Shown piece by piece: positions 12,626-35,786 of a stretch of DNA of 64,000 bases. A model generated the notes under the pieces. That model searched no databases and was not told the origin of the DNA. It saw only the letters and a list, made by a program, of their open reading frames with translations. Source of the DNA: Bacteroidota bacterium (lineage in GTDB: Bacteria > Bacteroidota > Bacteroidia > Bacteroidales > UBA4417); assembly GCA_037142075.1 (NCBI GenBank), contig JBAXBJ010000006.1:25266-89265 (forward strand), written 5' to 3'. Every line of letters starts with the position of its first letter. Within the stretch, counting starts at the first letter, position 1. The position numbers were made by a program, and so were the translations under genes.

Positions 12626-12653
12626 CTGAAACCTTGAGCCTGAAACCTGAAAC
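12626..12653. repeat. Four degenerate tandem heptamers CTGAAAC/CTTGAGC/CTGAAAC/CTGAAAC
   Basis: Read directly in the spacer between the convergent genes ending at 12339 and 12700. Confidence 0.8.
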
Positions 12654-12699
12654 TTAGAATATCACTACCTACCCCGTTCGAAGTATAACTCTTGCCTTT

Positions 12700-13704: not shown

Positions 13705-13809
13705 ATCTTAAAACTAAATTTGCAGTTTGATTGATAGTAATATACCAATTCGAACTCTGGTGTCTTTTTCCCTGATGCGTGAAGAAAAGGCGGCCAAAAT
13801 TTCTAAAAA

Positions 13810-14540: not shown

Positions 14541-14712
14541 TGATTACCTTTTGCATTTTTAATGGTTTTAACTTCTCGAGGATAAATGAAGATTTCGCAT
14601 TTCAATGCGAGACATTTGCCGGACAGTATTCCCACATTACTGGATTGCTTCATGGTAGTTATTTTTTCAGAAAAGTATCATTCAGCTCATGCCTTTATCC
14701 CCTTCAACAATC

Positions 14713-14728
14713 TACATCATTTGATGTA
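14713..14728. promoter_or_regulatory. 7-2-7 palindrome TACATCA-TT-TGATGTA (copy 2 of 3)
   Basis: Perfect inverted heptamers with a 2-nt spacer, about 145 nt upstream of the ATG at 14874. Confidence 0.5.
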
Positions 14729-14873
14729 TTACACAGGAAATTTATCTCGTCTACTTTTGTCAAGAGTAAACGGACAAACGGTTATGAAGAATTAATAAAA
14801 TTCAGAACCCGGTTTTGTCAATTAAGAATTTAAAATAAATTTATTTCTGTCTTCATAGCCGCAACTTACTGAT

Positions 14874-16349
14874 ATGAAATTATTTACAACATTTATATTC
14901 CTCGTATTAACGATCTCGCTCTACGCCCAGCAGAAACCTGAGCCAATTACTTTACCCGGCGTTGCTTACCCGATACTGAGCATGAAGAAAAGCCCTTCTT
15001 CCAAATATCTCTTTCTTTCCCTGGCCGGTGGTCGCTTTTTGCTCTACGATATCAGCAAGGGGAATCTGAACGAAAACTCCACGCCATTATGGAAAAACTT
15101 TGATAGTAAGGGTTTTGCCATTGGCGGTGATGCTGAATTTTCGGATAACGAGAAGTACATCCTGGTAGTTGAACAAAATGCAATGTATGCCCGCGATAAA
15201 GCCAAAATCGAACCTTTCAGTATAAATGTGCTTGATGTTGCTACCGGGCAGGTAGTTTACGAAACAGAGGGAGTAAACAGTGCCCAGTTTTTAATCGACA
15301 ATTCAACCATTCTGCTTGCTGATGATGAGGGAGTTGCAACCTACAACTTGATAACCAAAACCAAAGGCGAAAAGAAAAAAATTGAGGCTTGCGAAATCGC
15401 CTGCCTCAACCATGCAGGAAATTTACTTTCCGCTTCGTATGATGCCGAAAGGAGCGAATTTAAAGATGAAGACGGAGCCGGGTTGAACAAAAAAGAGTTG
15501 AAAAATGCTGCAAAAAATAAAAAGCTGATCCGGTTTTATGAATATCCATCAATGAAAAATGCAGGAATCATAAATGAAGAAGTTGATGTGGTTTTCAGGA
15601 TGCAATATACCGCTGATGATAAATACCTCTTGTTTTTCAGCCGGACAAGGCAGGCGGAACATACGCATGTCAGTTTGCTTAATGGGCTCGATAAAGCAAA
15701 TGATCTCAACCAGTTTCAGCGTATCGACATCGGTGATTTCAGGGTAGATAATGCAAACTTCATCTATCAGACCAGCGAGCAAATGGCCAATTTTGATATC
15801 ACGCCATCATCAACTTTATTTTCGTACAACGACAACCGGGGACTTTTTGCCGGCAAACGAGAGGTGTATATTACCAATTTTGCTGAGCAACAGGTAATTG
15901 TCGGGAAATTTACTTTCCAGGGACGAGCAAAAACACGAAACCTGCACCAGGCCGCTTTTGCTTTTATTGATGATTCCATTTTGCTGGTTGCCAATGGTCT
16001 AAAGCTTACTTACTGGAATTTTGCGAAACTCCCTGATTATGTAGAGTATATTGAACCTGTGAACGAAAATGCCATACTCGACAATGCAATCGGGCAGCTG
16101 GACGACGACCTGCAAGACCCTGAAAGTTCGTTATCAAAATCAATTTCGAAACGCGCGATTACAGGCCTTTACCTGATGAATATAACCATTCAGAAAAGCG
16201 GTGAAGTGGTATCCATCTTTGCCCAATCGGACGATAAAACCAATATATCTATGCAAAATATGTTGAAAGATATAATTCTTAAATACAAGTTTGATGTTAC
16301 CGTACCCAAAAACGAACGATTAAAATTCACCTACACCTTTATCCTTTAA
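14874..16349 (+). CDS. Secreted hypothetical protein (signal peptide; probable beta-propeller N-terminal part)
   Basis: 491 aa. Signal peptide MKLFTTFIFLVLTISLYAQQ. No catalytic motif recognised. 19-nt gap to the next gene, so likely an operon. Confidence 0.6.
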   Translation: MKLFTTFIFLVLTISLYAQQKPEPITLPGVAYPILSMKKSPSSKYLFLSLAGGRFLLYDISKGNLNENSTPLWKNFDSKGFAIGGDAEFSDNEKYILVVEQNAMYARDKAKIEPFSINVLDVATGQVVYETEGVNSAQFLIDNSTILLADDEGVATYNLITKTKGEKKKIEACEIACLNHAGNLLSASYDAERSEFKDEDGAGLNKKELKNAAKNKKLIRFYEYPSMKNAGIINEEVDVVFRMQYTADDKYLLFFSRTRQAEHTHVSLLNGLDKANDLNQFQRIDIGDFRVDNANFIYQTSEQMANFDITPSSTLFSYNDNRGLFAGKREVYITNFAEQQVIVGKFTFQGRAKTRNLHQAAFAFIDDSILLVANGLKLTYWNFAKLPDYVEYIEPVNENAILDNAIGQLDDDLQDPESSLSKSISKRAITGLYLMNITIQKSGEVVSIFAQSDDKTNISMQNMLKDIILKYKFDVTVPKNERLKFTYTFIL

Positions 16350-16368
16350 ACCATTAAATCAAAAACTT

Positions 16369-18060
16369 ATGAAAAAGAAAACTCTGGCAATTGGTCTGTT
16401 TTTAACTCTTTCGGCATCCGTATTTGCTCAAAAAAATGAAGAAATGAAAACAGTTTGGGAAACCAAACTGAATTACGAATATGACCTTACCGGCCTGGAT
16501 GAAAACCTGAAAATAATCCACGGCAGCAACGACAAAAATTTCGGCGTGTTAAATGCCGAAGACGGAAGCAAGAAATGGGTAAGCAAATTCTCCGAAATTA
16601 GCGAAAACATCAAAAAAGTGGATCTTCAAATCCCGATGTACGAATCAAAGGCCATCTTCCTTTTCGACAAGAAAATGGGTAAAGACTTTATGGTAGTTGT
16701 GGATATCGAAACTGGCAAAATGCTTTGGAGTACCAGCAAATACCAAGGCATAGAAGACCAGGACGAAATTGTATATATCCCCGAAATGGATGCTTATGCG
16801 GTTGTTACAAAAGACGCGCTCACTATGGTGAAAGCACGCACCGGCGAAGAACTCTGGAGCACCAAAACCATGAATACACCTGTGGGAAGATATATTTACG
16901 ATAATGATGAGAAAACTATCACCATGGTAAACATGCCACGTACTTTTCTGGGAGCAATGTTAAAAGGATTTAAAAATCAAATTCTTAAAATAAATGTTAA
17001 AAATGGTGACGTAATCTGGGAACAAACCTACCGCGGGATGATAGAGAAAAAGGTAGTTAGCAGGGAACCTGTTGCAAAATTTATATTAGCCGAAGGAAAT
17101 AAGTTAATGTTACAACTTAATGGTTTACAGGTATTCGACTATAAAACAGGAAAACCACTTTGGAGTGCTACTTATGATGTAACTTTTGAGGAATTTGCCA
17201 GAGTAAAAACCCCTGGTCGGGTTAAAGCAAAAGGAGTTTATGGTGCCGTTGCAGATCCACTTTACGATGGCGAGTTTGTATATATCCTCGATTTTAAAGG
17301 CAAATCGTCACAATACCTTAAAAAATACGAAGTAAATTCAGGTAAACTCGTGTGGACTTCACCTGAGATAAAGGATGCAAGGGCAATTCCGGGTTTGTTT
17401 ATGGTTGATGGTGTTTTGCTTATGCAGGTTGGAGGTGCTGTTGAAGTGCAGGGAATAACGGTTCAAACAACATCAAACTCAAGTGGTACAACTACCACAA
17501 CCTACAAATCAATCAGTTATCAGAATGTAAAGCCCTACAATGTACAGGCATTTAATGTTGCTGATGGCAAGCAAATATGGGAAAGCGACCGCTTTAAGAA
17601 AGGCATTTCAAATATGTTCCTCAACGAGAAAGACCTTATAGTTTGCAGTGGTAAAGCATTGTACAACGTAGATTATAAAACCGGAGCCGAGAAATACGAG
17701 GTTTCGCTGGACAAGGACGATATTTCGCTGGCTGAAAAAATTATTGACCCGATTTCTCTGGGTGAAGACGTGAATAAAGACAATGTCATTATAGTGGGTT
17801 CAAAAGGAGTTAGTGCACACAATATGAAAACCGGGGCAAAAGTGTGGGCAAACAGGACCAAAACCGGCGATTTCAACGGCATTTACGGAACCACTGCATT
17901 TTACCAGACTGAAAGCGACGATCAGTTTGCCATTGATGTGAACTCAGGCAAAGGCACCTATTACAACGCACGGAAAGATTCGAAATCGGAATATTCGTCA
18001 GATGGCAATTACCTGTATGCATTCGAAAAGAAAGTCATAACCAAATTAGCAACGAAATAG
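16369..18060 (+). CDS. Secreted PQQ-like/BamB-like beta-propeller repeat protein
   Basis: 563 aa. Signal peptide ...SASVFAQ. A recurring G(K/E)x(L/I/V)W(S/E)... blade motif: GKMLWSTSKY, GEELWSTKT, GDVIWEQTY, GKPLWSATY, GKLVWTSPE, GKQIWESDR, GAKVWANRT. Confidence 0.75.
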   Translation: MKKKTLAIGLFLTLSASVFAQKNEEMKTVWETKLNYEYDLTGLDENLKIIHGSNDKNFGVLNAEDGSKKWVSKFSEISENIKKVDLQIPMYESKAIFLFDKKMGKDFMVVVDIETGKMLWSTSKYQGIEDQDEIVYIPEMDAYAVVTKDALTMVKARTGEELWSTKTMNTPVGRYIYDNDEKTITMVNMPRTFLGAMLKGFKNQILKINVKNGDVIWEQTYRGMIEKKVVSREPVAKFILAEGNKLMLQLNGLQVFDYKTGKPLWSATYDVTFEEFARVKTPGRVKAKGVYGAVADPLYDGEFVYILDFKGKSSQYLKKYEVNSGKLVWTSPEIKDARAIPGLFMVDGVLLMQVGGAVEVQGITVQTTSNSSGTTTTTYKSISYQNVKPYNVQAFNVADGKQIWESDRFKKGISNMFLNEKDLIVCSGKALYNVDYKTGAEKYEVSLDKDDISLAEKIIDPISLGEDVNKDNVIIVGSKGVSAHNMKTGAKVWANRTKTGDFNGIYGTTAFYQTESDDQFAIDVNSGKGTYYNARKDSKSEYSSDGNYLYAFEKKVITKLATK

Positions 18061-18080
18061 AAATATATTTAAAAAACGCG

Positions 18081-18108
18081 GGGTGAAGCCACAAGCTTCA
18101 CCCTTTTT
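18081..18108 (+). terminator. Rho-independent terminator after the 16369..18060 gene
   Basis: gggtgaagc-cacaa-gcttcaccc: 9-bp stem and 5-nt loop followed by ttttt. Confidence 0.85.
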
Positions 18109-18177
18109 CTTATAAAAAAAAGGATTGGCTTATCTGCTAAAAACAAGGAATACCCTTAGGATCATCTGCTTTTTAAC

Positions 18178-18193
18178 TACATCATTTGATGTA
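18178..18193. promoter_or_regulatory. 7-2-7 palindrome TACATCA-TT-TGATGTA (copy 3 of 3)
   Basis: Perfect copy located right after the terminator at 18081-18108 and upstream of the propeller fragment. Confidence 0.5.
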
Positions 18194-18379
18194 TTTAATG
18201 TTCAATTCCGCAGCAGTATCTTTGTGCCTGAAAAATTTCCGATACTGAAATTTTTTCTTCAGTTTTGAATATCATTCGTTTTTTATCCCAGGAAACTGCA
18301 TCAAAGGTGTAGTTTCCTTTTCTTTTGTCTGGATAGATTTTTCTTGCTTAAAAATTTCCAACAAAGATACAAGAAGTAA

Positions 18380-19021
18380 AAAACTAACTGGACAACTTAT
18401 ACGACTCAGAACCCTGGTATCCTTCATGGTAATATCAGCGCAATTGCCATAGATGAAAAGGGAACAAAATGGATCGGGTATATCTGGGATGATGGAGTCT
18501 CGGAATTTGACAGTGCCACCTGGACAGACTATATGCATACTGAGGGTATATCTTATAGACTCAGCAGTCAGCTGATAGACGTAGATCGACAGGGTAATAA
18601 ATGGTTTGCAGGTCGTGGTTATGGAATATGGAAATTTGATGGTATTAATTTCTTTTCATATAATACCGTAAATAAAGGTTCTCCATACGACCAAATAAAC
18701 GCATTATTTATCAATAGTATGGGAATTAAATGGTTTGGCGTTCAAAGTGGAGTTTTAAAACTGGAAGATACAACCTGTACCGCCTACAGCACCAGTAAAT
18801 TGGTTAATGATTATGTTTATGAAAAAACTGAAGATGCAAATGGTTATAAATGGTTTGCCACATTGGGTGGGGTATCAAGGTTTGATGTCACTAATTGGAT
18901 AAAATACACTAATTCAAATAGCGGATTAGTAAACAATAACGTTATCTCAATGGCCATTGATAAGAAGGGGTATAAATGGATGGGAACGCTAAATAGTGGT
19001 ATTTCAGAGTTTCAGAAATAA
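18380..19021 (+). pseudogene. Start-less fragment of a two-component-regulator-propeller protein (or a 162-aa product from the ATG at 18533)
   Basis: The frame is open from 18380, just after a TAA at 18377-18379. It already encodes propeller repeats (NISAIAIDEKGTKWIGYIWDDGVSEFD) before the first ATG/GTG/TTG at 18533. Later blades are GNKWFAGRGYGIWKFDG, GIKWFGVQSGVLKLED, GYKWFATLGGVSRFD and GYKWMGTLNSGISEF. I found no signal peptide or start upstream in any frame. Confidence 0.55.
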
Positions 19022-19036
19022 AGTTTAAAAACAGAG

Positions 19037-19059
19037 CCATACATAAGGCTAATGTATGG
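19037..19059. terminator. Hairpin between convergent genes (CCATACAT-N7-ATGTATGG)
   Basis: Perfect 8-bp inverted repeat read directly. There is no clear T-tract, so the terminator role is tentative. Confidence 0.4.
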
Positions 19060-19111
19060 ACATAAAAATGAATTAAAATAATTGCAGTCCATAATCGGCC
19101 ATCATTTCTCT

Positions 19112-19807
19112 TTAGCCTCTCTTACTAATCTCCTTCAGAGCATCTCTCTTAAGCACTTCAATATCTTTATCCACAAGCCTGATCAGTCCATCCTGCTCAA
19201 ATCCTTTGAGCAGTTTCACAGTGCTTTCGGTGGATAAGCCAGCAAAATCGGCTATTTCCTTGCGCGTAAGAAAGCTGAAAACGCTTTCGTTATTGTATTG
19301 CACGGTATCGAGGTAAAGCAACACATCGGCTAGCCTGCCATGCATTTGCTTATACATCATACTGCGGATAGTGCCGTAAAGAGAACTGTCGTTTTCATAA
19401 TACCGGTTTATCAGGCCATAGGCGAAGCTGCCATTACTTTTTATCAGACCGGCGATAGCATCTTTTTCTATCAGGCAGGCCAATGTTTCTTTTACAGCGA
19501 TTGTCGAATAATCATATGTGTGCTTGCTGAAAGCAGCTGAAAGCCCAATAAATTCACCACCTCGGATCATACGCAGGTTGAAATCACGGTTCGAATCCCC
19601 GATAATGTACTGCCGCACCAGGCCTTCAACAACAAATAAAACGCTCGAAGCAAATGCTCCTTGTTTTGTGAGGCTTTCGCCTTTGCGGAACAGCACCTGA
19701 ATTTTGCTATCCTTCACCAGGTCAATCTCTTCGGGCAATAAATTTGCAAAACAGGGAGCTTTAAGCCCGCCAAGCACACAATCGTCAATTGCAGAATACG
19801 TTTTCAT
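19112..19807 (-). CDS. Crp/Fnr family transcriptional regulator (paralogue 1)
   Basis: 231 aa. cNMP-binding-like beta-barrel plus C-terminal HTH (TRKEIADFAGLSTESTVKLLKGFEQDGLI). Alignable end to end with 50108..50800. Confidence 0.85.
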   Translation of the reverse strand: MKTYSAIDDCVLGGLKAPCFANLLPEEIDLVKDSKIQVLFRKGESLTKQGAFASSVLFVVEGLVRQYIIGDSNRDFNLRMIRGGEFIGLSAAFSKHTYDYSTIAVKETLACLIEKDAIAGLIKSNGSFAYGLINRYYENDSSLYGTIRSMMYKQMHGRLADVLLYLDTVQYNNESVFSFLTRKEIADFAGLSTESTVKLLKGFEQDGLIRLVDKDIEVLKRDALKEISKRG

Positions 19808-19932
19808 TTATTTTAAGTCTATGTGCAAAAGTAAGAACTATAATAACAACAAACCTGAGGAATCACAACGAATGGAATATTCACACGTCCAACAGAAGTT
19901 TTACCTTTGCCGGTAAGTTAGTGTAATTTTGC

Positions 19933-19940
19933 ATTGAAAT
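19933..19940 (+). promoter_or_regulatory. Possible Bacteroidota -7 box TAATTTTG upstream of the OsmC-family gene
   Basis: Matches the TAnnTTTG consensus, 18 nt upstream of the ATG at 19958. A TTTG lies at 19915-19918 but closer than the usual -33 spacing. Confidence 0.3.
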
Positions 19941-19957
19941 AAAAACCGATATTTATC

Positions 19958-20371
19958 ATGAAACATACAGTAGATACTTCGTGGCAGGGCAATATGAAAT
20001 TTGATGCCGTCGTAAGCGGTCATCACGTTATTATGGATGCTTTACCTGCAATGGGTGGCAATGATGAGGGCGCACGTCCCAAAGAACTGATGCTGGCCGC
20101 TTTAGCCGGTTGTACCGGAATGGATGTGGTAGCCATTCTGAAAAAGATGCGAATCGAACCAGCATACTTCAATGTGAGGGTGGAAGCTGAAATGACAGAA
20201 GAGCATCCCAAGCATTATACCGCCATGCACATTATTTATGAGTTCAAAGGTGAAGGCCTGGAAAAGGAAAAATTACAGAAAGCCGTTGACCTTTCGCAGG
20301 AACGCTATTGCGGTGTCTCGACTGCTTATCGCAAGGCTATGGAAATTACACATGAGATTGTTATCCTATAA
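19958..20371 (+). CDS. OsmC/Ohr family peroxiredoxin-like protein
   Basis: 137 aa with the two conserved Cys contexts LAALAGCTGMDV and ERYCGVS. Confidence 0.85.
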   Translation: MKHTVDTSWQGNMKFDAVVSGHHVIMDALPAMGGNDEGARPKELMLAALAGCTGMDVVAILKKMRIEPAYFNVRVEAEMTEEHPKHYTAMHIIYEFKGEGLEKEKLQKAVDLSQERYCGVSTAYRKAMEITHEIVIL

Positions 20372-20427
20372 ACGAATACTGAATTTCGAAAGGCAGAAGC
20401 AAATGTAATGAAATGTATGGCTTCGGG

Positions 20428-21072
20428 CTAACACCCGCCTCCTGATGAAGCTGCTTTTTTAACGGGTGTAACTGTCTTTTTTTCGGATTTAACAGCTTTT
20501 ACAACTTCTTTTGCATCAGCGGCCGGTGAAGAGATCATTTTTAATGCAACTGTATCAATAAGAGGTATTTCACATAATTGAGGCAACAGTCTTGTAAGTG
20601 AATCAGAGTTTGCAATATCCAGTTGTGCATAGCTTCCTGTAAAAAGCAAAACGTTTTTAAATCCGGTTTGCCTGAGCATAAGCCAGGGGCCATTGGCCTG
20701 TTGCTGGGTTTCACCGTATATAACAGCAGTTTGTCCGGCTTTTTCGATATCACGAAAAGTGGCTTTGCTTTTTTTTGCAAACAATTCACGAACCGGTATA
20801 TTAACCGCGTTTTTAATATGTCCGCGATCAAAAGCTATTGAATTACGGACATCGATAAAAACATATTTGCCGTCACTTTTCTTTAATAAATCAGCTGCTT
20901 GTTCAGGAGTAATAACCGAAGCCGTTTCCTTCAGTAAAGCCAGGCTTTCAGTCAGCGAAAGCTTATATTTAACCTCAGGCCTGCGGAATGTGATCAAACC
21001 TGTAACAATTACCAGCACAATAATAACTACTGTTATTGTAAGCCTGTTTGTCTTATTAAGTTCTTCCATCAT
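20428..21072 (-). CDS. Membrane-anchored rhodanese-homology protein lacking the catalytic Cys, with C-terminal ...KKAASSGGGC
   Basis: Start trimmed to MMEELNK (21072) because the upstream gene ends at 21098. TM TITVVIIVLVIVTGLITF. Rhodanese fold YVFIDVRNSIAFDRGHIKNAVNIP...TAVIYGETQQQA, with Gly at the Cys position. The spacing to the distal motif is the same as in GlpE-type domains. Lys-rich tail ending GGGC then stop. Confidence 0.8.
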   Translation of the reverse strand: MMEELNKTNRLTITVVIIVLVIVTGLITFRRPEVKYKLSLTESLALLKETASVITPEQAADLLKKSDGKYVFIDVRNSIAFDRGHIKNAVNIPVRELFAKKSKATFRDIEKAGQTAVIYGETQQQANGPWLMLRQTGFKNVLLFTGSYAQLDIANSDSLTRLLPQLCEIPLIDTVALKMISSPAADAKEVVKAVKSEKKTVTPVKKAASSGGGC

Positions 21073-21097
21073 AATATTCTGTGTTTTGAAAGTACAA

Positions 21098-21721
21098 TTA
21101 ACAACCGCCACCCGATGAAGCCCCGGATGCTTTTTTAACAACGTTTACCTTTTTCTTGACTGTTTCAGCTTTTGGAACTGCAGCCATCTCATGACTGCCA
21201 TAGAAATACTGGCAAGCCGCTATCCTGAACTGGTAAAGCGCCAAAGCTTTAGCTGTGGCAGTTTCGGCAGGTTTTTCAGCTTTAACAATGGTGTTGAACC
21301 ATGCATTAACGCCGCCCTGCATCACATAAATCCGTTGTAGTTTCATGCGTTTACAGATGATCCATGCCTGGTCGGAGGTGACATCCGCGTTGGAATAAAA
21401 AACTTTATCCATCGCTTTTTGATTCAGAATTTCCTGTGCTGAAGCTGAAAGCAGGGAATCTGAAGGAATATTGATGGCTCCGGGAATAGAAAAAGCTCTG
21501 AACTGGGATCCAGGTCTCACGTCAATCAATATCAAAGCCGGATCTTTTTTTACAAGCCTGTCGGTGATATCATCAGTGGTTAGAAACCTTGATGGATCAT
21601 CGATTGCCGCAAGTAACAGTTCGGGTTGAGTTTGTTTGGCAGTATCTTTTGCAGGCATAAAGAGTATTCCAACTCCCAGCGCAATTATAATTCCTGCCAG
21701 TAACAGGTATCTTTTGTTCAT
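21098..21721 (-). CDS. Membrane-anchored/secreted rhodanese-homology protein lacking the catalytic Cys, with C-terminal ...KKASGASSGGGC
   Basis: 207 aa. N-terminal hydrophobic helix MNKRYLLLAGIIIALGVGILF. Rhodanese fold LILIDVRPGSQFRAFSIPGAINIP...KVFYSNADVTS, with Ser at the Cys position, then ...YVMQGGVNAW. Lys-rich tail ending GGGC then stop. Confidence 0.8.
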   Translation of the reverse strand: MNKRYLLLAGIIIALGVGILFMPAKDTAKQTQPELLLAAIDDPSRFLTTDDITDRLVKKDPALILIDVRPGSQFRAFSIPGAINIPSDSLLSASAQEILNQKAMDKVFYSNADVTSDQAWIICKRMKLQRIYVMQGGVNAWFNTIVKAEKPAETATAKALALYQFRIAACQYFYGSHEMAAVPKAETVKKKVNVVKKASGASSGGGC

Positions 21722-21732
21722 AGTCTTAACTC

Positions 21733-22326
21733 TTAGTACTCAACTTTATTTACCTTCTTTTCAACAAATGCAGCTCCATAAAACATCCCAACGGCTGCAA
21801 CTATCAGAAGGAAAGCAAAAACAGTGTCGCGCATGCCAAGGAGATCGTAAATCTTAGCTCCTCCCAGGTTATGGCTGTTGTACAAGCCCTGAAACAGAGG
21901 GTAAAGTTCCGAGAAAATAAATACCCCGATAAATAATCCGCCACTGAAAAACATGGCATCAATTTTCCCTATGGCCACGCCTGTAAAACTGGTGCCAGGG
22001 CAAAAGCCTCCCAGCGCAAAGCCAAATCCCATTATGATACCACCAATAATAGCCGACATCACATAATACGGATTGATATAAAGCATGGACATATCCATCC
22101 AGCCCATATAATCGAAATAAAATATTCCGGTCATGGCTGTGATGGCAGCCGTAAAAAACACGCGTAAAACCACAAAATCATATCCGAAAAAGGTCCCCAT
22201 GATTTTGCGTGATGAAGAAAAACCGGAGGCTTCGAGAGAAAATCCGAAGCCGACTCCCAGTAACAACGCAATTACATTGTTCCAGGTTTCGGGTATAACA
22301 CCCATGGGAATAAGAGGTCCTACCAT
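21733..22326 (-). CDS. YeeE/YedE family (sulfur-transport domain) membrane protein, half-size
   Basis: 197 aa, polytopic and Gly-rich, with the conserved motif LGGFCPGTSF. Confidence 0.8.
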   Translation of the reverse strand: MVGPLIPMGVIPETWNNVIALLLGVGFGFSLEASGFSSSRKIMGTFFGYDFVVLRVFFTAAITAMTGIFYFDYMGWMDMSMLYINPYYVMSAIIGGIIMGFGFALGGFCPGTSFTGVAIGKIDAMFFSGGLFIGVFIFSELYPLFQGLYNSHNLGGAKIYDLLGMRDTVFAFLLIVAAVGMFYGAAFVEKKVNKVEY

Positions 22327-22379
22327 ATATTTTTGAGTTTAATGCGTTTAATAATATTATTTTTTTGATTTAAGAATAT

Positions 22380-22447
22380 CGATTTACGATTTTTAAATTG
22401 TGATTTCTCCTCTGATTTAGTTTTCTTCTAAAATCTAAAATCGTTAA
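22380..22447. repeat. Heptamer stutters in the spacer between the two YeeE/YedE halves
   Basis: cgattta/cgatttt (22380-22393) and tctaaaa/tctaaaa/tcgttaa (22427-22447), read directly within a 206-nt AT-rich spacer. Confidence 0.75.
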
Positions 22448-22532
22448 TCTTTGTTCTTAAATCCTTAATTGTATTTTTTGACACTTGTCAATAGGATTAG
22501 TTCTAAAATATTCAGCCAGAGATTCATCTTCA

Positions 22533-23060
22533 CTAAATCCATAATTTCTTAAAAATCCATGAAAACAGGTAAGCAGAGCCGAATATAGCCATCATGGTAA
22601 TTATCCCAGAAGCCGAAAGCACAGCCATACCGCTTAAAGCAGCGCCGCTGGTACATCCGCGGGCAAACTGGGAGCCCACTCCGAAAAGGATGCCACCGGC
22701 CAGAGCTGCTATAAGCCTGGTTTTGCCGGTAATTTTAGGTGAGTGTTCTACTTTGAACTTCAACCTTCCGTAAAGTGTTCCCGAAAGAAATCCTCCGACA
22801 ATTACACCTATAACTTCAAATACCAGCCAGTTACTCATCGGGCTGGCATCGTCGCTCAGGAATTTGCTGTAGTATTTGTTTGTTTCCGCATGAACCGGAG
22901 CTACTGTATGAACTGCTGATACTACAGAGCTTTTTACCGCACCACTTGCACCAAGTCCGCGGCCGGTGATATAATAAGTGCTGAAGAGCACCAAGCCCAA
23001 TAATACACCACCCAAATAGGGATTGATGTAAAAGGAGCCATCTCGTGTATTCTTTGCCAT
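22533..23060 (-). CDS. YeeE/YedE family (sulfur-transport domain) membrane protein, half-size
   Basis: 175 aa, polytopic, with the conserved motif FARGCTSGAALSG. Confidence 0.8.
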   Translation of the reverse strand: MAKNTRDGSFYINPYLGGVLLGLVLFSTYYITGRGLGASGAVKSSVVSAVHTVAPVHAETNKYYSKFLSDDASPMSNWLVFEVIGVIVGGFLSGTLYGRLKFKVEHSPKITGKTRLIAALAGGILFGVGSQFARGCTSGAALSGMAVLSASGIITMMAIFGSAYLFSWIFKKLWI

Positions 23061-23153
23061 GATTAACTATTTTTTGTGTTGAACTTGTTTTGTGTTAAAC
23101 GCATTTAAAGTTTTGGAAGTCGGGGGTCAGAAGCCGAAAGTTAAAAGTCAAAT

Positions 23154-23250
23154 TTGTTGCCCTTTCTCCTTGTCGCCCCTCACCTTGTCGCCCCTCGCCC
23201 TGTCTCCCCACTCACAACCCCCCAAACCCTAATCCCCAAATCCTAACCCC
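23154..23250. repeat. C-rich (G-rich on the transcribed minus strand) mosaic repeat between psrC-like gene and YeeE/YedE
   Basis: The element reads ttgttgccctttctccttgtcgcccctcaccttgtcgcccctcgccctgtctccccactcacaaccccccaaaccctaatccccaaatcctaacccc. It contains a near-duplicated 15-mer, ccttgtcgcccctca then ccttgtcgcccctcg. Its ends resemble the element at 50922-50972. Confidence 0.85.
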
Positions 23251-24191
23251 TAATACAAATACCGTGTAATCTGCCCAGCTTCAACCATGATAAACCTGAA
23301 TATCAGTCCCCCGAGAAGAACCAATATAGCCGGGATCATAATAGGCACTTTGAAGCCGACAAGTTCGAGAACTTCCAGTACTGCAGGTAACAAAAGTCCC
23401 AAAAGGATTACAAATACAAAGAATGGAACTGTAAATTGCCCGCCCAGGAACAAGTTGGCTGCGTCGATCTGTACCTGTGATCCTGCCAGGAATCCCATAA
23501 TCATATGGACGATGAAGAACAATTCCACCGCTATAAACAACAGGTCGAGGCGGCCGATAAGCCGGCGTTCTTCATGGTTTTTGCTCATCAGTATAATGCT
23601 TGCTGCACCCGTCGACATACCGGATACCAGGAACAGAGGTCCGAGAATGGTCGTATTCCACAAAGGCCGCGCGTTAAATGCTGAAAGTAAAATCCCGGTA
23701 TAAATCCCAAGGATAACGGCATAAATGGCCATCGGCCAGGCAATAAACCATCGGTTTTTAATTACCCAGGCTTCGAAGGTATAAAGGAATTTAAATTTCC
23801 AATCCCAGTTTGGAAATACTTCCCTCACATAACTGGCTGACCATATGATCGAAATCGGAGTCATGATCATCAATACCCATGCGCCCCAGCCCATTGGCGA
23901 TTCAAGACGAATGGTGGTGTAAAGTTGCCAGAAATAGAGTTTGTGCTTTAAGTCGAGGAAAAGCATAAACAAACCGATAATCAGCGCAAAAGGCACAATA
24001 AAGGGTGCCCATTTTACGGTAGCCTGCATTTCTTTCTCCTTGCCTATAATGGTATAAACAGCAGCCAGGAACAATATACCGGCTGCCAGGCCTCCCAGGA
24101 AAAGATAGATCGGGATTTGCCAGTGCCAGATATGCAGATAAGGGTCAATATTAGGAATATTGCGACCACTTACAAATAATTCTTCTTTCAT
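23250..24191 (-). CDS. NrfD/PsrC-type polytopic membrane quinol-interacting subunit
   Basis: 313 aa, about 8 TM helices, immediately downstream of the Fe-S and molybdopterin subunits. Confidence 0.85.
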   Translation of the reverse strand: MKEELFVSGRNIPNIDPYLHIWHWQIPIYLFLGGLAAGILFLAAVYTIIGKEKEMQATVKWAPFIVPFALIIGLFMLFLDLKHKLYFWQLYTTIRLESPMGWGAWVLMIMTPISIIWSASYVREVFPNWDWKFKFLYTFEAWVIKNRWFIAWPMAIYAVILGIYTGILLSAFNARPLWNTTILGPLFLVSGMSTGAASIILMSKNHEERRLIGRLDLLFIAVELFFIVHMIMGFLAGSQVQIDAANLFLGGQFTVPFFVFVILLGLLLPAVLEVLELVGFKVPIMIPAILVLLGGLIFRFIMVEAGQITRYLY

Positions 24192-24215
24192 ATTAAATCG
24201 AATATTTTTGATTTA

Positions 24216-24749
24216 TCAGGTCAGGTAAAAGATATTGGGTTTAGTTCCTGCTTCGGGTGCCAATGCCTTGAATTTTCGGTTCTTAAGAACGTTCACAATT
24301 TCTGAATTAGGATCATCAAGATCACCGAAATACATGCAACTGGTTGGGCAAACGCTCACGCAGGCCGGATTTTCACCTTTTCGAACCCTGTGAATACAGA
24401 AAGTACATTTATCCACATACCCGTCAGGATGCGAATACCTAGCTTCGTAAGGACAGGATTCGATACACGCACCACAACCAATGCATTTATTGTGAGTTAC
24501 AAGCACAATTCCACCATCTTCGAAGTGACTTGCACCGGTAGGACAGCAACGTACACAAGGCGAGTTATCGCAGTGGTTGCAACGTTCCGAACGCAGTTCA
24601 ATGCTTACGTTGGGATAGGTTCCGTCAACGGTCTCGGTTACCCAGTCGCGGCAGAAACCAATGGGAACCTTATTTTCGGTCTGGCAGGCAACTACACAGT
24701 CGCTGCAGCCAACACATTTTTTGGTGTCGATAGCCATCGCGTACCTCAT
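24216..24749 (-). CDS. 4Fe-4S ferredoxin-type electron-transfer subunit (PsrB/PhsB/NrfC-like)
   Basis: 177 aa with four Cys clusters (CVGCSDCVVAC, CNHCDNSPCVRCCP, CIGCGACIESCP, CTFC...CVSVCP). 4-nt overlap with the catalytic subunit gene. Confidence 0.9.
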   Translation of the reverse strand: MRYAMAIDTKKCVGCSDCVVACQTENKVPIGFCRDWVTETVDGTYPNVSIELRSERCNHCDNSPCVRCCPTGASHFEDGGIVLVTHNKCIGCGACIESCPYEARYSHPDGYVDKCTFCIHRVRKGENPACVSVCPTSCMYFGDLDDPNSEIVNVLKNRKFKALAPEAGTKPNIFYLT

Positions 24750-27030: not shown

Positions 27031-27427
27031 TTTCTATTGTTTATTGAATAACAAAGGTATTGTAATCTTAATCACTTACGAAAAATGTTAAACATATAAC
27101 TATATACGTATCATACTGATATTGTGCTAGTTAAAATTGTATTTAAATCGAAGACAATATTGAAATATATACATAATGCACAGTATCAGGCAAATACGCT
27201 CTTCTTTAGAATCCTTATAAATTCAATACATAAAATCTATGTATCAGAATATGAGGGCATTACGATTAAATATAACTACTCAAAGTATAAACTGTCACAG
27301 AACATAAAAAAAAATGATATATAGCAACTGCGTACAAATGCCTCCATGCTAATATCATGCACTATTCAATTTGAAGATAGGACATTTCTATGTATCTTTA
27401 CAAAATAATCTCATTTCCGATAACTCT

Positions 27428-30235
27428 ATGAGAGTAACCTGTATCATAATCTTCCTGGTGTTCTTGTGTACCGATTCAGCATTTTCACAAACAAAAAACG
27501 ATCCCGGGAATGGGAAATTTCTAATCGGTTTCTCCCAATGCACAACAGGCGATGCCTGGCGTAGGTCAATGGACCAGGAAATGCAAAATGAGCTACTTTA
27601 TTATCCTAACTTACAACTTCTTATTAAAGATGCTGAAAACAGCAGTAAAAAACAGGTGAATGATATCCGGGAATTACTAGCTGCAGGGATTGACTTGCTC
27701 ATTATTTCGCCGAATGAATCACAACCACTTACTGGTATTGTAAGTGAAGTATACAAAAAAGGCATTCCGGTAATTCTTATCGATCGTAAAATCGAATCGG
27801 GCGATTACTCTGCATTTATTGGCGGAAACAGTTACCAGATTGGGAAAGAAGCCGGAATTTATGCCGTGAAGTTGTTGAAAGGGAAAGGGCGTATTGTTGA
27901 AATTTCAGGTCTTGAGGGTTCATCGCCTGCCAAAGAACGGCACAAAGGTTTTGTTGAGGAAATTTCTAAGGCACCAGGAGTTACAATTACCAAATCATTA
28001 TCCGGGGAATGGGAAGTAGCTGTCAGCGGGAAGGTCATGAAGAACTATCTTGAGACGAACGAGCCTTTTGATCTTGTTTTTGCCCACAACGATGTTATGG
28101 CGCTTGGCGCTTATAATGTGTATTTTCAGAAGTACGGGAAGAAAAATGCTTTCTTTATCGGAGTTGATGGTTTACCTGGAACAGGATGTGGTATTGAGGC
28201 GGTAATGGACAGGAAACTTAATGCGACATTGCTTTATCCAACTGGTGGCAGCCTGGCTATTTCGCTGGCCTGGGATTTGCTGAACAATTTACCGGTAGAA
28301 AAAGAGAATATACTGAATACGCTGGTTATTGATTCGACTAATGTGCGGGCTTTGAAATTCCAGACCGATGAGATACTGAATCTTCACAACAGAATTGTTA
28401 ATTCCCGGAAAATCCTGGATGAACAGGTTAAAAAATACCTGAGCCAGCGGTTCTGGTTAATTGTGGCGCTCAGTTCGCTGTTCCTGGTGATTGTTCTGAT
28501 TGTTTTACTTTTCAGGGGATTCAGAAATAAAGCTAAAGCCAATCTTAAACTCGAAGTTCAGAAACAAGCCATCACCCGGCAAAACGAGGAACTGCGTAAT
28601 ATTTCACTCGAGCTGGAAGAAGCCACAAAGGCCAAGCTGGTTTTTTTTACAAATATCTCACACGAATTCCGCACACCGCTTACCTTAATGATAGGGCCCC
28701 TGGAAAATATTCTCTCGGATAGCAAACTTTCAATTTCATTCCGAAGCCAGTTGCAGATGATGCTGCGCAATGCCACACGATTGCTCAGGATGATAAACCA
28801 ATTGATGGATTTGAGGAAGGTTGAAGATGAAAAGATGAAAATCAAGGCCGGTGAATACGACATTGTCAGTTTTACAACTGGAATTAAGGAAGCTTATGAT
28901 GAACTGGCGGCCAGAAAAAATATCTGTTTCAAACTCAATACCGCGCAAAACAGACAACTTGTCTATTTTGACAGGGATAAGGTTGATAAGATCCTTTTTA
29001 ACCTGCTTTCGAATGCTTTTAAATTTACTTCCGAGTCGGGAAGTATTGATATTAATATCAACAAGGTGCAGCACAACTTTACTGGCGTTGAGAAAGAAGC
29101 TGTTGAAATTGAAATCCGGGATAATGGAATTGGAATAGCAGAGGATAGCCTGAATAAGATTTTTGAACGGTTTTACCAGGTTGAACAGAACAAAGGAAAT
29201 ATTGTGGCTGGCACAGGAATTGGTTTGCCCCTGTCGAAAGGTTTTGTCGATCTGCATCATGGTGATATTACTGTAAAAAGCAAAAAAGGCAAAGGATCCA
29301 TTTTTACTGTCTATTTCCAGTTAGGGAAAGCTCACTTTACAGAAGAAGAAATAAGTAATGAAGATCTTGAATTTACCAGGATTGACAAACAGATATTCCC
29401 TGAATTAAACCAGGAAGATGCGGATGTTGAAAACATGAATCAAACGCATATTACGAACGACTATGAGAACATGCCGCTTTTATTGATCGTTGAGGATAAC
29501 GCAGATGTAAGTAAATTCATCAAATCATGCTTGGTTGACAATTACAGGATAATGACAGCCTCAAATGGAATAGAAGCCTTTGAGAAGATTTACATTGACC
29601 AGCCCGACCTGATAATAAGCGATGTGATGATGCCGGAAATGGATGGCCTGGAGTTCACTAAAAAGCTGAAGTCCGATATCCGCACCAGCCATATTCCGGT
29701 AATATTGCTCACAGCTTTATCATCACATGAAAGTAAAATTGAAGGCCTCGAAACGGGAGCGGATTCTTATATAGCTAAGCCTTTCAATAAAAAACACCTA
29801 CAGGTACGTGTAAAACAACTTATTGAGAACCGGCAGAAAATCCGGAAACATTACCAGCAGGATGTGATAACCCAGTTTGTGAAGGAAAATAAAATATCGC
29901 AACTGGATAGCAGTTTCCTGAAAAAGTGCAATGCCATCATTGAAAAGCATTTAACGGATAATGAATACGGCGTGGAACAGATGAGCGTAGAGATGAGCCT
30001 ATCGAGAGTGCATGTTTACCGGAAAATTAAACACCTTACCGGCCTGACAGTTAGTGAGTTTATACGTAATATCAAACTAAAAAAAGCAGCGGTTATGTTG
30101 CAGGAAAGTGGGAAAAACATCGCCGAAGTCGCCTATGAAACCGGGTTTTCAAGCCCTTCGTATTTTTCAAAATGTTTTAAAGATTTATATAATATATCTC
30201 CTACTGAGTTTGTTCAGAATAATATTTCTGAGTAA
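27428..30235 (+). CDS. Hybrid two-component system (HTCS) sensor/regulator with periplasmic sugar-binding (PBP-type) domain; BT1754-like fructose sensor
   Basis: Start trimmed to MRVTCIIIFLVFLCTDSAFSQ. Periplasmic-binding-protein-like domain, then TM FWLIVALSSLFLVIVLIVLLF. H-box FTNISHEFRTPL, an HATPase domain and a receiver (LLLIVEDN...ISDVMMPEMDG). C-terminal AraC HTH. Divergent from a GH32-containing PUL, as in the B. thetaiotaomicron fructan locus. Confidence 0.85.
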   Translation: MRVTCIIIFLVFLCTDSAFSQTKNDPGNGKFLIGFSQCTTGDAWRRSMDQEMQNELLYYPNLQLLIKDAENSSKKQVNDIRELLAAGIDLLIISPNESQPLTGIVSEVYKKGIPVILIDRKIESGDYSAFIGGNSYQIGKEAGIYAVKLLKGKGRIVEISGLEGSSPAKERHKGFVEEISKAPGVTITKSLSGEWEVAVSGKVMKNYLETNEPFDLVFAHNDVMALGAYNVYFQKYGKKNAFFIGVDGLPGTGCGIEAVMDRKLNATLLYPTGGSLAISLAWDLLNNLPVEKENILNTLVIDSTNVRALKFQTDEILNLHNRIVNSRKILDEQVKKYLSQRFWLIVALSSLFLVIVLIVLLFRGFRNKAKANLKLEVQKQAITRQNEELRNISLELEEATKAKLVFFTNISHEFRTPLTLMIGPLENILSDSKLSISFRSQLQMMLRNATRLLRMINQLMDLRKVEDEKMKIKAGEYDIVSFTTGIKEAYDELAARKNICFKLNTAQNRQLVYFDRDKVDKILFNLLSNAFKFTSESGSIDININKVQHNFTGVEKEAVEIEIRDNGIGIAEDSLNKIFERFYQVEQNKGNIVAGTGIGLPLSKGFVDLHHGDITVKSKKGKGSIFTVYFQLGKAHFTEEEISNEDLEFTRIDKQIFPELNQEDADVENMNQTHITNDYENMPLLLIVEDNADVSKFIKSCLVDNYRIMTASNGIEAFEKIYIDQPDLIISDVMMPEMDGLEFTKKLKSDIRTSHIPVILLTALSSHESKIEGLETGADSYIAKPFNKKHLQVRVKQLIENRQKIRKHYQQDVITQFVKENKISQLDSSFLKKCNAIIEKHLTDNEYGVEQMSVEMSLSRVHVYRKIKHLTGLTVSEFIRNIKLKKAAVMLQESGKNIAEVAYETGFSSPSYFSKCFKDLYNISPTEFVQNNISE

Positions 30236-30389
30236 GATGGCAGGGGCAAAGAATATAATAAGATTTCGACCTATAAAAAACAACCTGGAACCTCAATACT
30301 CTTGTTAAAGAAGCATCTTAGTGCCAGGTTGCAACCCAACCTCAATCAATCAACCAATCTTGTTTTAATTTAATATTAAGTAACACCGC

Positions 30390-31973
30390 TTATTTTTTCC
30401 AGATAGAATTCAATTTATAAATAGAACCTGAATCAAGTTGTGCTTTTCCATTTTTACTGTACAAACGGATGCCTGAGAATTCTTCGGTCGGGAAGAAAAT
30501 TTCTGTCATAACCACTTTTCCACTCATGGCAAACAGTTCGACCGAAGCGGCATCAATGATTAAATGCAGATCAACTGAAGAATCATTTAATATGAAAGGT
30601 GCAACGTGAATTCCGCTGAAATCTTTCGAGAAATCGCTATTGCCGGCATTAGTCCTGTTAACATAAAATTCACCTTTGGATTTATCATAGCCAATCAGCA
30701 GGTTTTCGCCTTTTGAATTGTAGAGTTCCAACCCAAAATCTGTTGCAGTTTCGTTTGCAGGAAAAGAAAGCTTCAAGCTAATCTCTATGGGAGATGCAGG
30801 TTGGGAAAGATTTTGTCCCAATTCAAGTATACTTGATATAAGGGCAGGCTTTAATTCTTCCTTGCGCTCATGTAGTTGTTGAATTTCCTGCACAGGAGTT
30901 GAAATCAGGCTGTAATTGTTATTTTCGAAAATTAATTTAAGCTCTCGAGGAAATGTCATGGCACTACGCCATTTTACAGTCGGAACAACCTGTGCATATT
31001 GCCAGTTGCTCATCCAGCCTATTAAAATTCTACGCCCATCAGATTCAGGTATGTTGGAAAATGTAACCCCTGCATAATTATCCTTACCAAAGTCCATCCA
31101 GTGTGTACCAGTTGATTCGTTTGTGAATTTATGTCCATCAAATTGCCCCACAAAATATTGTGTTGCTGATCCTTCGTTGGGTCCTCCGGGATTAATACTT
31201 ACGAGTAAAATCCATTTCTTTTCACTTTTTGAGCTGCCAACAGGTAACTCAAATAAATCGGGGCATTCCCAAACACCGCCATGTGCGCCGATGCCTTTGC
31301 CAAACTCACTTTCCAAAGACCAGTCCTTTAGATTTGGAGACGAGTAAAAACAAACATGGTCGCCTGAAGCCAAAGTCATGATCCACTTTTTAGTTTCGGT
31401 ATTCCACGAAACTTTCGGATCTCGGAAATCGCGCTGCCCGGGGTTCTTCAGTACGGGATTCTTTTCGTATTTGGTCCAGGTTCGGCCTTTGTCGTTACTG
31501 TAAGCGATTCCCTGAGTTTGATAATCATTTCTGCCGGATTTTTCTCCAGCCATATTATGGTACGTATAAATAGCTACCATTGCCGGGTTGTTTGTCTTCC
31601 CAAATCCACTGGTATTATTAATATCTATAACAGCACTTCCTGAAAAAATATAACCAAGACTATCAGGATATAATGCTATTGGGAGATGTTTCCAATATAC
31701 AAGATCGGTGCTTATCGCATGCCCCCAATGCATAGGACCCCAAACCGTGGAATCGGGATAATACTGATAGAATAAATGGTACTCTCCTTCATAATAAACC
31801 ATTCCATTGGGATCGTTCATCCACATAGAATCGGGTGTAAAATGGAAATATGGCCTATATTGTTCCTTAGTAAATATTGCAGTATTATCAGCCTGGGTTG
31901 ACGTAGTACAACTCTCAACAGTAGTCATTAAAACAGAAGCAATAAGAATTGTAAAAAAAGTACTAAATTTCAT
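30390..31973 (-). CDS. Glycoside hydrolase family 32 (exo-fructanase/levanase-like), secreted
   Basis: 527 aa. WMNDPNGMVYYEGEYHLFYQ, FRDPKV and WECPDL catalytic motifs, plus an N-terminal signal/lipobox (VESC). Confidence 0.9.
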   Translation of the reverse strand: MKFSTFFTILIASVLMTTVESCTTSTQADNTAIFTKEQYRPYFHFTPDSMWMNDPNGMVYYEGEYHLFYQYYPDSTVWGPMHWGHAISTDLVYWKHLPIALYPDSLGYIFSGSAVIDINNTSGFGKTNNPAMVAIYTYHNMAGEKSGRNDYQTQGIAYSNDKGRTWTKYEKNPVLKNPGQRDFRDPKVSWNTETKKWIMTLASGDHVCFYSSPNLKDWSLESEFGKGIGAHGGVWECPDLFELPVGSSKSEKKWILLVSINPGGPNEGSATQYFVGQFDGHKFTNESTGTHWMDFGKDNYAGVTFSNIPESDGRRILIGWMSNWQYAQVVPTVKWRSAMTFPRELKLIFENNNYSLISTPVQEIQQLHERKEELKPALISSILELGQNLSQPASPIEISLKLSFPANETATDFGLELYNSKGENLLIGYDKSKGEFYVNRTNAGNSDFSKDFSGIHVAPFILNDSSVDLHLIIDAASVELFAMSGKVVMTEIFFPTEEFSGIRLYSKNGKAQLDSGSIYKLNSIWKK

Positions 31974-32091
31974 TTCGGCATTATTTTAAAATATTTTTAA
32001 TGTATTGCATGTCTATTTTTTTATTCAACCGGACTCAATAGAACTTCTAGTAGATGCAAGTGTAGGAAGTTATTAAGCAAACAACTATACT

Positions 32092-34365: not shown

Positions 34366-34382
34366 TTTCAGGTATTAGTTTT

Positions 34383-34424: not shown

Positions 34425-34444
34425 GATGACTCCAAATTATTGAT

Positions 34445-35725: not shown

Positions 35726-35786
35726 TGTTTCTGATTTTTAAAGGTTAGGTAGTTATGGTTTATTAATTGTGACTTTGATGTTTAGT

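Follow-up and report, generated by a model that had tools for sequence, protein, structure and literature searches.

Repetitive extragenic palindromes (REP) and bacterial interspersed mosaic elements (BIME) are built from a conserved imperfect palindrome, and REP, BIME and the hairpin-forming REP doublets (REPIN) are interspersed sequences mobilised by REP-associated tyrosine transposases (RAYT). The short tandemly repeated repetitive sequences (STRR) of cyanobacteria are heptamers, reportedly described by Mazel et al. in 1990; they comprise three specific units and belong to heterocystous cyanobacteria. Here we analyzed a stretch of 64,000 nt (the window) from a Bacteroidota bacterium (contig JBAXBJ010000006.1 of assembly GCA_037142075.1, positions 25,266 to 89,265 of the forward strand), in which seven gene spacers, among them that at 23061-23250, are filled with degenerate copies of short words. 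A reading of the sequence alone (the original prediction) had assigned these spacers to a BIME/REP-like mosaic family acting at the RNA level.

The closest described systems are tandem heptamers. Heptanucleotide units are the commonest long simple sequence repeats (SSRs) in most genomes, according to Mrazek, Guo and Shah (2007) as cited in PMC4679880 and PMC4692102; the origin given in these accounts is polymerase slippage, for which a polymerase-contact explanation was proposed, and the top ten genomes for repeats of 5-11 nt, as relayed there, are from Burkholderia, cyanobacteria, actinobacteria and Xanthomonas, with no Bacteroidota among them. Rehm et al. (2015; PMC4692102) described GGGAATC repeats in Xanthomonas and GGGGA(C/T)T repeats in Nostoc, which are intergenic and lie mostly in gaps where the neighbouring open reading frames (ORFs) are aligned. 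Convergent inverted pairs of them are frequent, and the repeats are transcribed and adopt G-quadruplexes (G4) in vitro; they are found up to 50 nt past a stop codon, there in the coding strand, or up to 50 nt ahead of an ORF, there in the opposite strand, and in some cases they overlap the stop (PMC4692102). Moreover, MacGregor (2015; PMC4679880) reported that Beggiatoaceae, cyanobacteria and five Bacteroidetes carry TAACTGA arrays, often placed immediately ahead of start codons, together with other heptamer repeats in spacers of Gramella and Aequorivita, close relatives of which have shorter, repeat-free gaps; binding of cold-shock proteins (Csp), S1 or CsrA was suggested for the TAACTGA repeats.

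All seven spacers of the window (A, 3201-3349; B, 4586-4723; C, 12340-12700; D, 22327-22532; E, 23061-23250; F, 41667-41838; G, 50801-50988) carry degenerate tandem arrays with periods mainly of 7, 14 and 21 nt, and every word and array quoted in the original prediction was found at its position. Tandem repeats with such a heptamer period are widespread in the intergenic DNA of Bacteroidota. Furthermore, the arrays follow one rule of orientation whatever their unit: read 5' to 3', the G-rich strand of an array leads away from the ORF end closest to it. We consider them probably to be heptanucleotide SSR arrays (long-SSR/STRR-like) that expanded in non-coding, presumably transcribed gene spacers, grew by slippage and were filtered by orientation-dependent selection.

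The 7-nt register was assessed in the window and in a sample of 161 sources (1.94 Mb, of which ~151 kb is non-coding), made up of the window, 80 nuoD-centred genome loci and 80 nrfD-centred metagenome loci; related loci are cited below by L numbers. The intergenic DNA of the window held seven arrays with a score of at least 36 against 1.1 in dinucleotide-preserving shuffles; for periods divisible by 7 the counts were four and 0.1. Autocorrelation at lag 7 in the same DNA was 0.314 compared with ~0.283 at neighbouring lags, while the coding DNA showed the period-3 signal only; thus the predicted predominance of a 7-nt period was borne out both by the arrays and by the autocorrelation. Besides the window, L002, L003 and L006 showed the lag-7 signal in their intergenic DNA; it was absent from that of L004 and L005, close relatives in which no arrays were found. 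An E. coli nuo-region control run through the identical pipeline gave no lag-7 signal and no multi-copy heptamer array.

Across the 1.94 Mb, 169 arrays were intergenic (~1.1 per kb) and 245 were coding (~0.14 per kb), and the density in the window (~0.9 per kb) was typical of the sample. The period was a multiple of 7 in 82 of the 169 intergenic arrays: periods of 7 (38 arrays), 14 (35) and 21 (6) stood out against 13 (3) and 15 (9), while 9, 12 and 15 dominated in coding arrays. The shuffle test over all loci returned 160 intergenic arrays observed against 24 shuffled, and 79 against 2.6 for multiples of 7. The arrays also sit flush with ORF ends, the median distance to a stop codon being 25 nt and the lower quartile at most 3 nt.

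The orientation rule has two faces: on the sense strand, G and purines are in excess and C is scarce where an array follows a stop codon, and C is in excess and G scarce where it precedes a start codon. Of the arrays no more than 50 nt past a stop, 67 against 40 had more G than C and 80 against 30 were rich in purines (p = 1.6e-6); of those no more than 50 nt ahead of a start, 58 against 30 had more C than G. On the plus strand, arrays in the left half of the intergenic region had G over C (64 vs 15) and those in the right half C over G (60 vs 19), and position correlated with G-minus-C (Spearman -0.60, p = 5e-18). The polarity was present in all four gene configurations and also in intergenic regions holding a single array (36:12 vs 9:31, Fisher p = 1.4e-6). 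It belongs to the arrays: mean G-minus-C in the left and right halves was +0.167 and -0.131 for arrays, and +0.005 and -0.011 for array-free intergenic regions. In the 33 intergenic regions in which an array has an inverted partner, the G-rich arm came first 25 times against 6. On the other hand, the purine bias of pooled co-directional arrays (61 vs 42) was no different from intergenic background; the signal emerged only once the arrays were grouped by how far they lie from the stop or start codon.

Nearly every array of the window follows the rule. In spacer E, the purine fraction of the sense strand (30-nt profile) was 0.67-0.87 over 23249-23160 and 0.37-0.43, with C exceeding G, over 23159-23100; in spacer F it fell to 0.45-0.50 beside the pfkB start, and stop-proximal blocks were nearly C-free (C 0.00-0.10). 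A constraint on orientation relative to the flanking genes is therefore real, as had been predicted, since arrays after stops and before starts differ in G/C and in purine content; the stronger statement that the sense strand is always purine-rich held after stop codons and failed before starts (E 23159-23100 and F near pfkB). The rule also explains why polarity flips in mid-spacer at convergent junctions, a flip that is seen as described at spacer G and only weakly at the 12.6 kb junction (spacer C). The rule is mirror-symmetric, and therefore it cannot by itself separate an RNA-level from a DNA-level cause.

Further sources of the bias were considered: i) an artefact of calling starts by the longest ORF was rejected as the cause of the C-rich bias, because start-proximal arrays swallowed by such calls split 16 vs 17; ii) a supply of back-up stop codons in all three frames was likewise rejected, as the sense orientation did better than the antisense one by 44 to 19 but shuffling of the units gave what composition predicts (ratio 1.11, not significant); iii) start-proximal arrays showed no significant avoidance of spurious start codons (p = 0.15).

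The features of the seven spacers, as called by Tandem Repeats Finder (TRF) or from composition, are as follows.

23219-23252, minus strand: G-rich heptamer array of spacer E (TRF period 14, 2.3 copies, score 50)
23168-23209, minus strand: 15-nt unit TGAGGGGCGACAAGG in 2.8 copies, spacer E (TRF score 63)
23154-23166, minus strand: end motif GAAAGGGCAACAA closing the G-rich block of spacer E, in common with 50922-50934
23107-23140, minus strand: start-proximal block of spacer E, C-rich on the sense strand, with remnants of CGACTTC-type heptamers (purine 0.37-0.43, C > G)
23061-23099, minus strand: A-rich leader of spacer E, immediately 5' of the yeeE-like start codon
22327-22532, minus strand: spacer D between the YeeE/YedE half-genes, with CGATTTA and TCTAAAA heptamers
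3288-3319, minus strand: array of the sense unit AAAATAG/AATAGAA in the nuoD-nuoE spacer (TRF period 7, 3.9 copies, or period 15, 2.1 copies)
4653-4723, minus strand: arrays of the nuoC-nuoD spacer, (ATATGAG/TTATGAG)x5.6 and then (AACCAGAGACAAGT)x2 (TRF)
12626-12653, no strand assigned: degenerate (CTGAAAC)x4 in the convergent gap C (TRF 71% matches, score 35), weak in polarity
41667-41838, minus strand: spacer F, from the MFS transporter gene to pfkB, beginning on the sense strand with (AATAGAAAAT-N4)x2
50812-50872, plus strand: (GGAATGT/GGGATGT)x8.7 with a 21-nt super-period, spacer G (TRF score 66 at period 7, 81 at period 21)
50922-50975, minus strand: G-rich (GTGAAGGG)x3.5 with a canonical G4 motif, spacer G, a paralogue of the spacer E core

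The intergenic period-7 calls of TRF start at 3288, 4685, 12626, 22427 and 50812, with units CTATTTT (x3.9), CTCATAT (x5.6), CTGAAAC (x4), TCTAAAA (x2.3) and GATGTGG (x8.7); other intergenic periods are 14 at 4653 and 23219, 15 at 23168 and 3288, 21 at 50815 and 8 at 50935. The first array of spacer E reads T-TAG-GGG TTAGGAT TTGGGGA TTAGGGT TTGGGGGG on the sense strand and starts within the psrC/nrfD stop codon (TAG at 23250-23252); together with the neighbouring 23168-23209 array, which is G-rich and nearly C-free on that strand (G 0.50-0.60, C 0.10), it makes a G4-type motif. The block that precedes the leader reads ...CTTTCGGCTTCTGACCCCCGACTTCC... in sense, GGAAGTCGGGGGTCAGAAGCCGAAAG on the plus strand. 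In spacer F, the opening units are followed in sense by GGAAGAC/GGATGTC/GGAAGTT/GGATGTC at 41768-41796, and the start-codon end has units of the complementary type, GGACTTC..CGACTTCTGACTTC, at 41676-41703. The 5.6-copy array of spacer B abuts and overlaps the nuoC stop codon; a distance of 47 nt separates the (CTGAAAC)x4 array from the stop of ORF 12700-13704 on the minus strand; and in spacer G the plus-strand array begins 12 nt past the stop of a Crp-like gene, with the minus-strand array ~19 nt past that of ORF 50989-51255.

The window comes from a Prolixibacteraceae-like genome of the Bacteroidota, AT-rich at ~40% GC. A metagenome contig in ENA, ERZ4223250, matches window positions 13250-24699 at 100% identity; the nearest genome is a metagenome-assembled genome (MAG), chromosome OY762227.1 ('Bacteroidales bacterium'; NuoD 99% identical as protein, the DNA ~88% identical), after which come Prolixibacteraceae and Mariniphaga MAGs at ~89-90%. 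Judged from Pfam matches of the window ORFs, the flagged spacers sit within apparent operons: A (nuoD-nuoE gap) and B (nuoC-nuoD gap) inside nuoA-G, and D and E inside a cluster in which psrA-B-C (for the molybdopterin, 4Fe-4S and NrfD subunits) are joined by two YeeE/YedE half-genes and by two rhodaneses. Spacer F separates an MFS sugar transporter gene from a fructokinase gene (pfkB) at the end of a fructan utilisation locus, and C and G are convergent gene junctions. The spacers were rightly called unusually long: the nuoC-nuoD and nuoD-nuoE gaps measure 135 and 149 nt in the window, compared with medians of 15 and 34 nt in 68 Bacteroidota nuo operons.

Some vocabulary is shared between spacers, again as predicted and beyond what composition yields: the seven spacers have 26 same-strand 9-mers in common against 6.9 +/- 3.5 expected (maximum 19 in 300 shuffles). 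Spacers E and G (minus strand) have a common core of ~55 nt (GACRGGGCGAGGGGYGA...GGTGARGGG...GAAAGG(G)CAACAA) in like orientation relative to the upstream gene, which is the best similarity between any two spacers (56 of 96 columns identical). In the 1.94 Mb searched, the 13-mer that ends this core occurs only at 23154-23166 and 50922-50934, both intergenic. Words of the GGATGTC type, AATAGAAAAT and GAAACCAGA recur across unlinked spacers of the window and of L002, and alignment shows CGACTYC units common to E, F and L083.

Comparison of orthologous spacers shows fast turnover: arrays are gained, lost and resized between close relatives, expanding gaps that already existed in short form. In the sister species L002, (GTTATGA)x4.1 lies 8 nt past the nuoC stop, where the window has ATATGAG/TTATGAG, and the same site holds (AACGATTAACAAAT)x2.7, unrelated to the window units; its nuoD-nuoE gap is only 61 nt, with (GGATGTC)x2.6 and (AGAAACA)x3.7 and neither the AATAGAA array nor the hairpin of the window. 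At the psrC-yeeE spacer, L083, L085 and L086 (93-96% protein identity) carry G-rich GGGTTAG, GGGATTT and GGGGTTA units in differing numbers, and L083 continues with (CGACTCC)x5 in place of the CGACTTC remnant seen in the window. In another sister species, L082 (99% protein, 86.5% DNA identity), the psrC-yeeE gap is 46 nt and repeat-free, and the D gap is ~32 nt in L082 and L085 compared with 206 nt in the window; repeat-free sister-species spacers at window sites measure 28-46 nt overall. The A-rich leader before the yeeE start is the sole conserved part of spacer E, its last 25 nt being identical in L085 and near-identical in L083.

Thus units vary by locus and by lineage, with some sharing within a genome, and unit number varies between related genomes at orthologous nuo and psrC-yeeE spacers, some of which have no arrays. 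Some relatives carry arrays with other units at orthologous sites, and L082 has none. Among the arrays compared, those of A, B, D and E, none is conserved in close relatives; the operons therefore probably do not need them. Arrays can swell operon-internal gaps from ~30 to ~200 nt without being conserved.

A related metagenome contig, L092, has a psrC-yeeE spacer of 157 nt (~4943-5099) that is almost wholly a heptamer gradient ending at the start codon, CAGATCA -> CAGATTA -> CTGATTA -> CTGATAA, the last unit being a rotation of the TAACTGA repeat. In a separate comparison, L163 (ENA ERZ4224321), a contig from a second sample, which covers window positions 21788-23179, had 0-1 mismatches over 22335-23179 (D, yeeE2 and part of E), and its yeeE1 was 11.3% divergent (61 of 539 positions, mostly third codon positions); the change in divergence at the edge of spacer D marks a breakpoint of recombination or of assembly chimerism.

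These observations fit a model in which slipped-strand mispairing, or else unequal exchange of units, would create arrays and alter their length, a process supported by the unit gradient of L092 and by the 14- and 21-nt super-periods in spacer G. The preference for 7 nt would be a property of the replication machinery, as proposed by earlier authors. Selection would then remove harmful orientations, while those that are harmless or mildly useful in mRNA would persist: G-rich, C-poor RNA after ribosome release could be a poor site for Rho loading, and a G-poor leader might suit the Shine-Dalgarno-independent initiation of Bacteroidota. The original prediction had held slippage debris to be the less likely origin; this judgement was not borne out, as the arrays behave as classical tandem SSRs, their unit number and sequence drifting from one orthologous site to another, and are absent from a sister species.

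Several points weigh against such filtered slippage: i) slippage alone predicts neither polarity nor word sharing, and therefore selection or directed copying must be added; ii) copy-number change within a species was not seen, the only second strain, L163, being identical in length over D and part of E; iii) near-identical locus pairs carried almost no arrays, too few to show copy-number polymorphism; iv) the sample of related loci is biased to nuo and psr neighbourhoods. Exact-protein look-ups for NuoC and the Crp-like protein, made in search of second strains, returned no matches.

An alternative, which we judge doubtful although it deserves some weight, holds the arrays to be RNA-level modules in a 7-nt register, either platforms for RNA-binding proteins (of the cold-shock-protein, S1 or RNA-recognition-motif type) or insulators that keep Rho from the untranslated RNA past a stop codon, and that they tune the ratios between cistrons. 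It would account for a strong polarity at stops and starts that marks the arrays and all but vanishes where intergenic regions have none, and it suits the nearly C-free, poorly structured stop-proximal blocks (spacer B has a minimum free energy of -11 kcal/mol over 135 nt) as well as the published suggestions of Csp, S1 or CsrA binding to TAACTGA repeats (PMC4679880). But the 64 kb of the window alone hold at least ten different units, a variety that speaks against any one sequence-specific binder; the same operons lack arrays in a sister species; and the mirror symmetry of the polarity fits effects on DNA as well as on sense RNA. A broader form of the idea is a little less probable still: polarity and 7-nt register may reflect a dedicated mechanism shared across phyla rather than filtered slippage, whether a single-strand-binding protein (7 nt per monomer) or an anti-Rho, leader-shaping code.

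Folding of post-stop G-rich arrays as G4, in the 3' region of the mRNA or in non-template DNA, with effects on transcription, decay or translation, is improbable as a general explanation. G4 regular expressions match the minus (sense) strand at 23191-23250 and 50935-50969, at least four G-tracts are kept in the orthologues L083 and L086, and the units resemble the Nostoc GGGGATT repeat that folds as G4 in vitro (PMC4692102). However, G-tract heptamer units with at least four consecutive G-tracts make up only 2 of ~11 window arrays, most of the others (ATATGAG, AATAGAA, CTGAAAC, TTTTAGA) being incapable of G4; L085 has only three G-tracts and L082 none; and the 151 kb of intergenic DNA contain only 12 G4 motifs with no clear strand rule (7 vs 5). 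Under the slippage reading, the two G4-capable arrays may in addition fold in RNA or in the non-template DNA strand. Other Bacteroidota spacers, L073 (3752-3794 and 6480-6555) and L086 (4950-5017), hold long perfect arrays of 8-nt G-tract units, (GGGTTATT)x5, (GGGGTTAC)x9 and (GGGAGAAT)x4, all G4-capable.

Inverted arrays that fold into hairpins and act in termination, attenuation or RNase III processing are very unlikely to be the common basis of the spacers. Inverted partners do occur in 33 intergenic regions of related loci (e.g. L006, L034 and L032) with the order of arms given above, and in spacer D two arms of 27 nt (22367-22393 with 22437-22463) make up an imperfect inverted repeat. Yet E, F and G have no inverted repeat, the polarity is also present in single-array intergenic regions, sense-strand RNA folds of the spacers were no better than shuffles (z -1.8 to +1.1), and none of the seven spacers has a hairpin followed by a T-run. 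Clean intrinsic terminators, one of them bidirectional, stand at the array-free gaps 8394-8437, 18080-18104 and 46716-46742; canonical terminators are thus used at array-free operon ends, and therefore the repeat spacers are not, by sequence, terminator substitutes. Searches of the whole window with Rfam (gathering thresholds) and a tRNA scan gave no match, and counts from a sigma-70 promoter scan, which is unsuited to Bacteroidota promoters, equalled shuffle expectation. In nuo-operon spacers of related loci, L006 (8393-8500), L034 (20226-20290) and L032 (15231-15287 and 17351-17418), a heptamer array is followed by its reverse-complement array, for example GGAATTA x4 and then CCTAATT x6 in L006; long hairpins might form from such pairs, all of which open with the G-rich arm.

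The assignment to REP/BIME-like mosaic mobile elements, that is, palindromes spread by a transposase and acting as RNA stabilisers or protein-binding sites, is highly improbable. The recurrence of words among unlinked spacers above shuffle expectation and the E/G core in like orientation relative to the upstream gene could be read in its favour. Against it, no conserved palindromic unit of ~20-40 nt was found in the seven spacers: inverted repeats were detected only in A (3226-3264) and D (22367-22463), which are unrelated, and a scan found none in C (12340-12700), E, F or G; that of A, a small hairpin CCTCCCC-GTT-GGGGAGG, is separate from the 3288-3319 array. Moreover, near-identical interspersed copies in alternating orientation, as in BIME, were not seen, the spacer content being head-to-tail tandem; the units change by locus and by species; and none of the 50 window ORFs scanned (64 kb of genome) has a transposase domain. 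The family membership proposed in the original prediction is accordingly not supported. Lastly, chance low-complexity sequence from base composition, for which the AT-rich genome (~40% GC) and the 2-3 copies of several arrays might speak, can be dismissed on the excess over shuffles (7 vs 1.1 arrays in the window; 160 vs 24, and 79 vs 2.6 for multiples of 7, over all loci) and the negative E. coli control.

Several features of the surrounding genes deserve mention. The fructan utilisation locus that encloses spacer F is complete (27371-43182), with a hybrid two-component sensor bearing a periplasmic sugar-binding domain, two GH32 enzymes, DUF4960, SusD, SusC, the fructokinase and the MFS transporter. 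Beside spacer D, the YeeE/YedE family (PF04143) is split over two minus-strand ORFs, 21733-22326 and 22533-23060, which match profile halves 10-150 and 178-308 with the 206-nt repeat spacer between them; a ~20-codon ORF, ATGAATCTCTGG...TAA at 22487-22524 (minus strand), noted by eye a few bases past the yeeE2 stop, may be meaningless. Neighbouring minus-strand ORFs at 61461-61877 and 62118-62669 match parts 177-276 and 15-94 of the sialidase-like BNR_2 profile and resemble a fragmented gene or pseudogene. Small toxin-antitoxin-like pairs are located at 13810-14540 (HEPN and nucleotidyltransferase, MNT) and 60524-61089 (a ParE toxin and a 92-aa upstream partner). At 43536-46688 on the plus strand, a Rieske protein gene precedes one for a 905-aa fusion that joins a cytochrome b N-terminal domain to multihaem cytochrome c motifs, adjoining rhodanese and porin genes.

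Heptamer periodicity thus pervades Bacteroidota spacers, and arrays of unrelated sequence obey one orientation rule, which makes this a testable regularity; for annotation, it follows that such spacers should not be labelled REP elements, small RNAs or terminators. Like REP/BIME of enterobacteria and REPINs of Pseudomonas, the arrays are short repetitive sequences that lie in transcribed spacers between genes, also inside operons, but those are interspersed palindromes whereas the elements of the window are tandem, non-palindromic and variable in unit. Like STRR, they are tandem heptanucleotides in non-coding DNA including operon interiors; they differ in their Bacteroidota host and, apart from one GGGGATT, in their units. 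Like the TAACTGA repeats, they are intergenic heptamer arrays with shorter, repeat-free spacers in close relatives; unlike them, the window has only seven isolated TAACTGA/TCAGTTA words and no tandem units, a TAACTGA-type array being found only in the related metagenome locus L092.

As in the repeats of Rehm et al., the window has heptamers of a G-tract plus AT after stop codons, G4-capable by pattern, and its array at 23219-23252 (TTAGGGG, TTGGGGA and GGGGATT units) is a near-copy of the Nostoc unit type that overlaps the psrC stop. In Xanthomonas and Nostoc one unit dominates the genome, whereas here, in another phylum, many unrelated and mostly non-G4 units show an equal polarity. As for the long heptanucleotide SSRs of Mrazek, the likeness lies in tandem 7-nt units, intergenic enrichment, sporadic distribution across lineages and attribution to slippage: the arrays have head-to-tail units beyond chance, 7 nt predominates, their location is intergenic and coding arrays have periods that are multiples of 3. 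What is added is the scale of ~150 Bacteroidota loci, super-periods of 14 and 21 nt and a polarity rule that is explicitly stated. The heptanucleotide SSR class itself is already known and its phylum-level instance in Bacteroidota is new, and the polarity matches the single-unit reports from Xanthomonas and Nostoc and extends them to arbitrary units.

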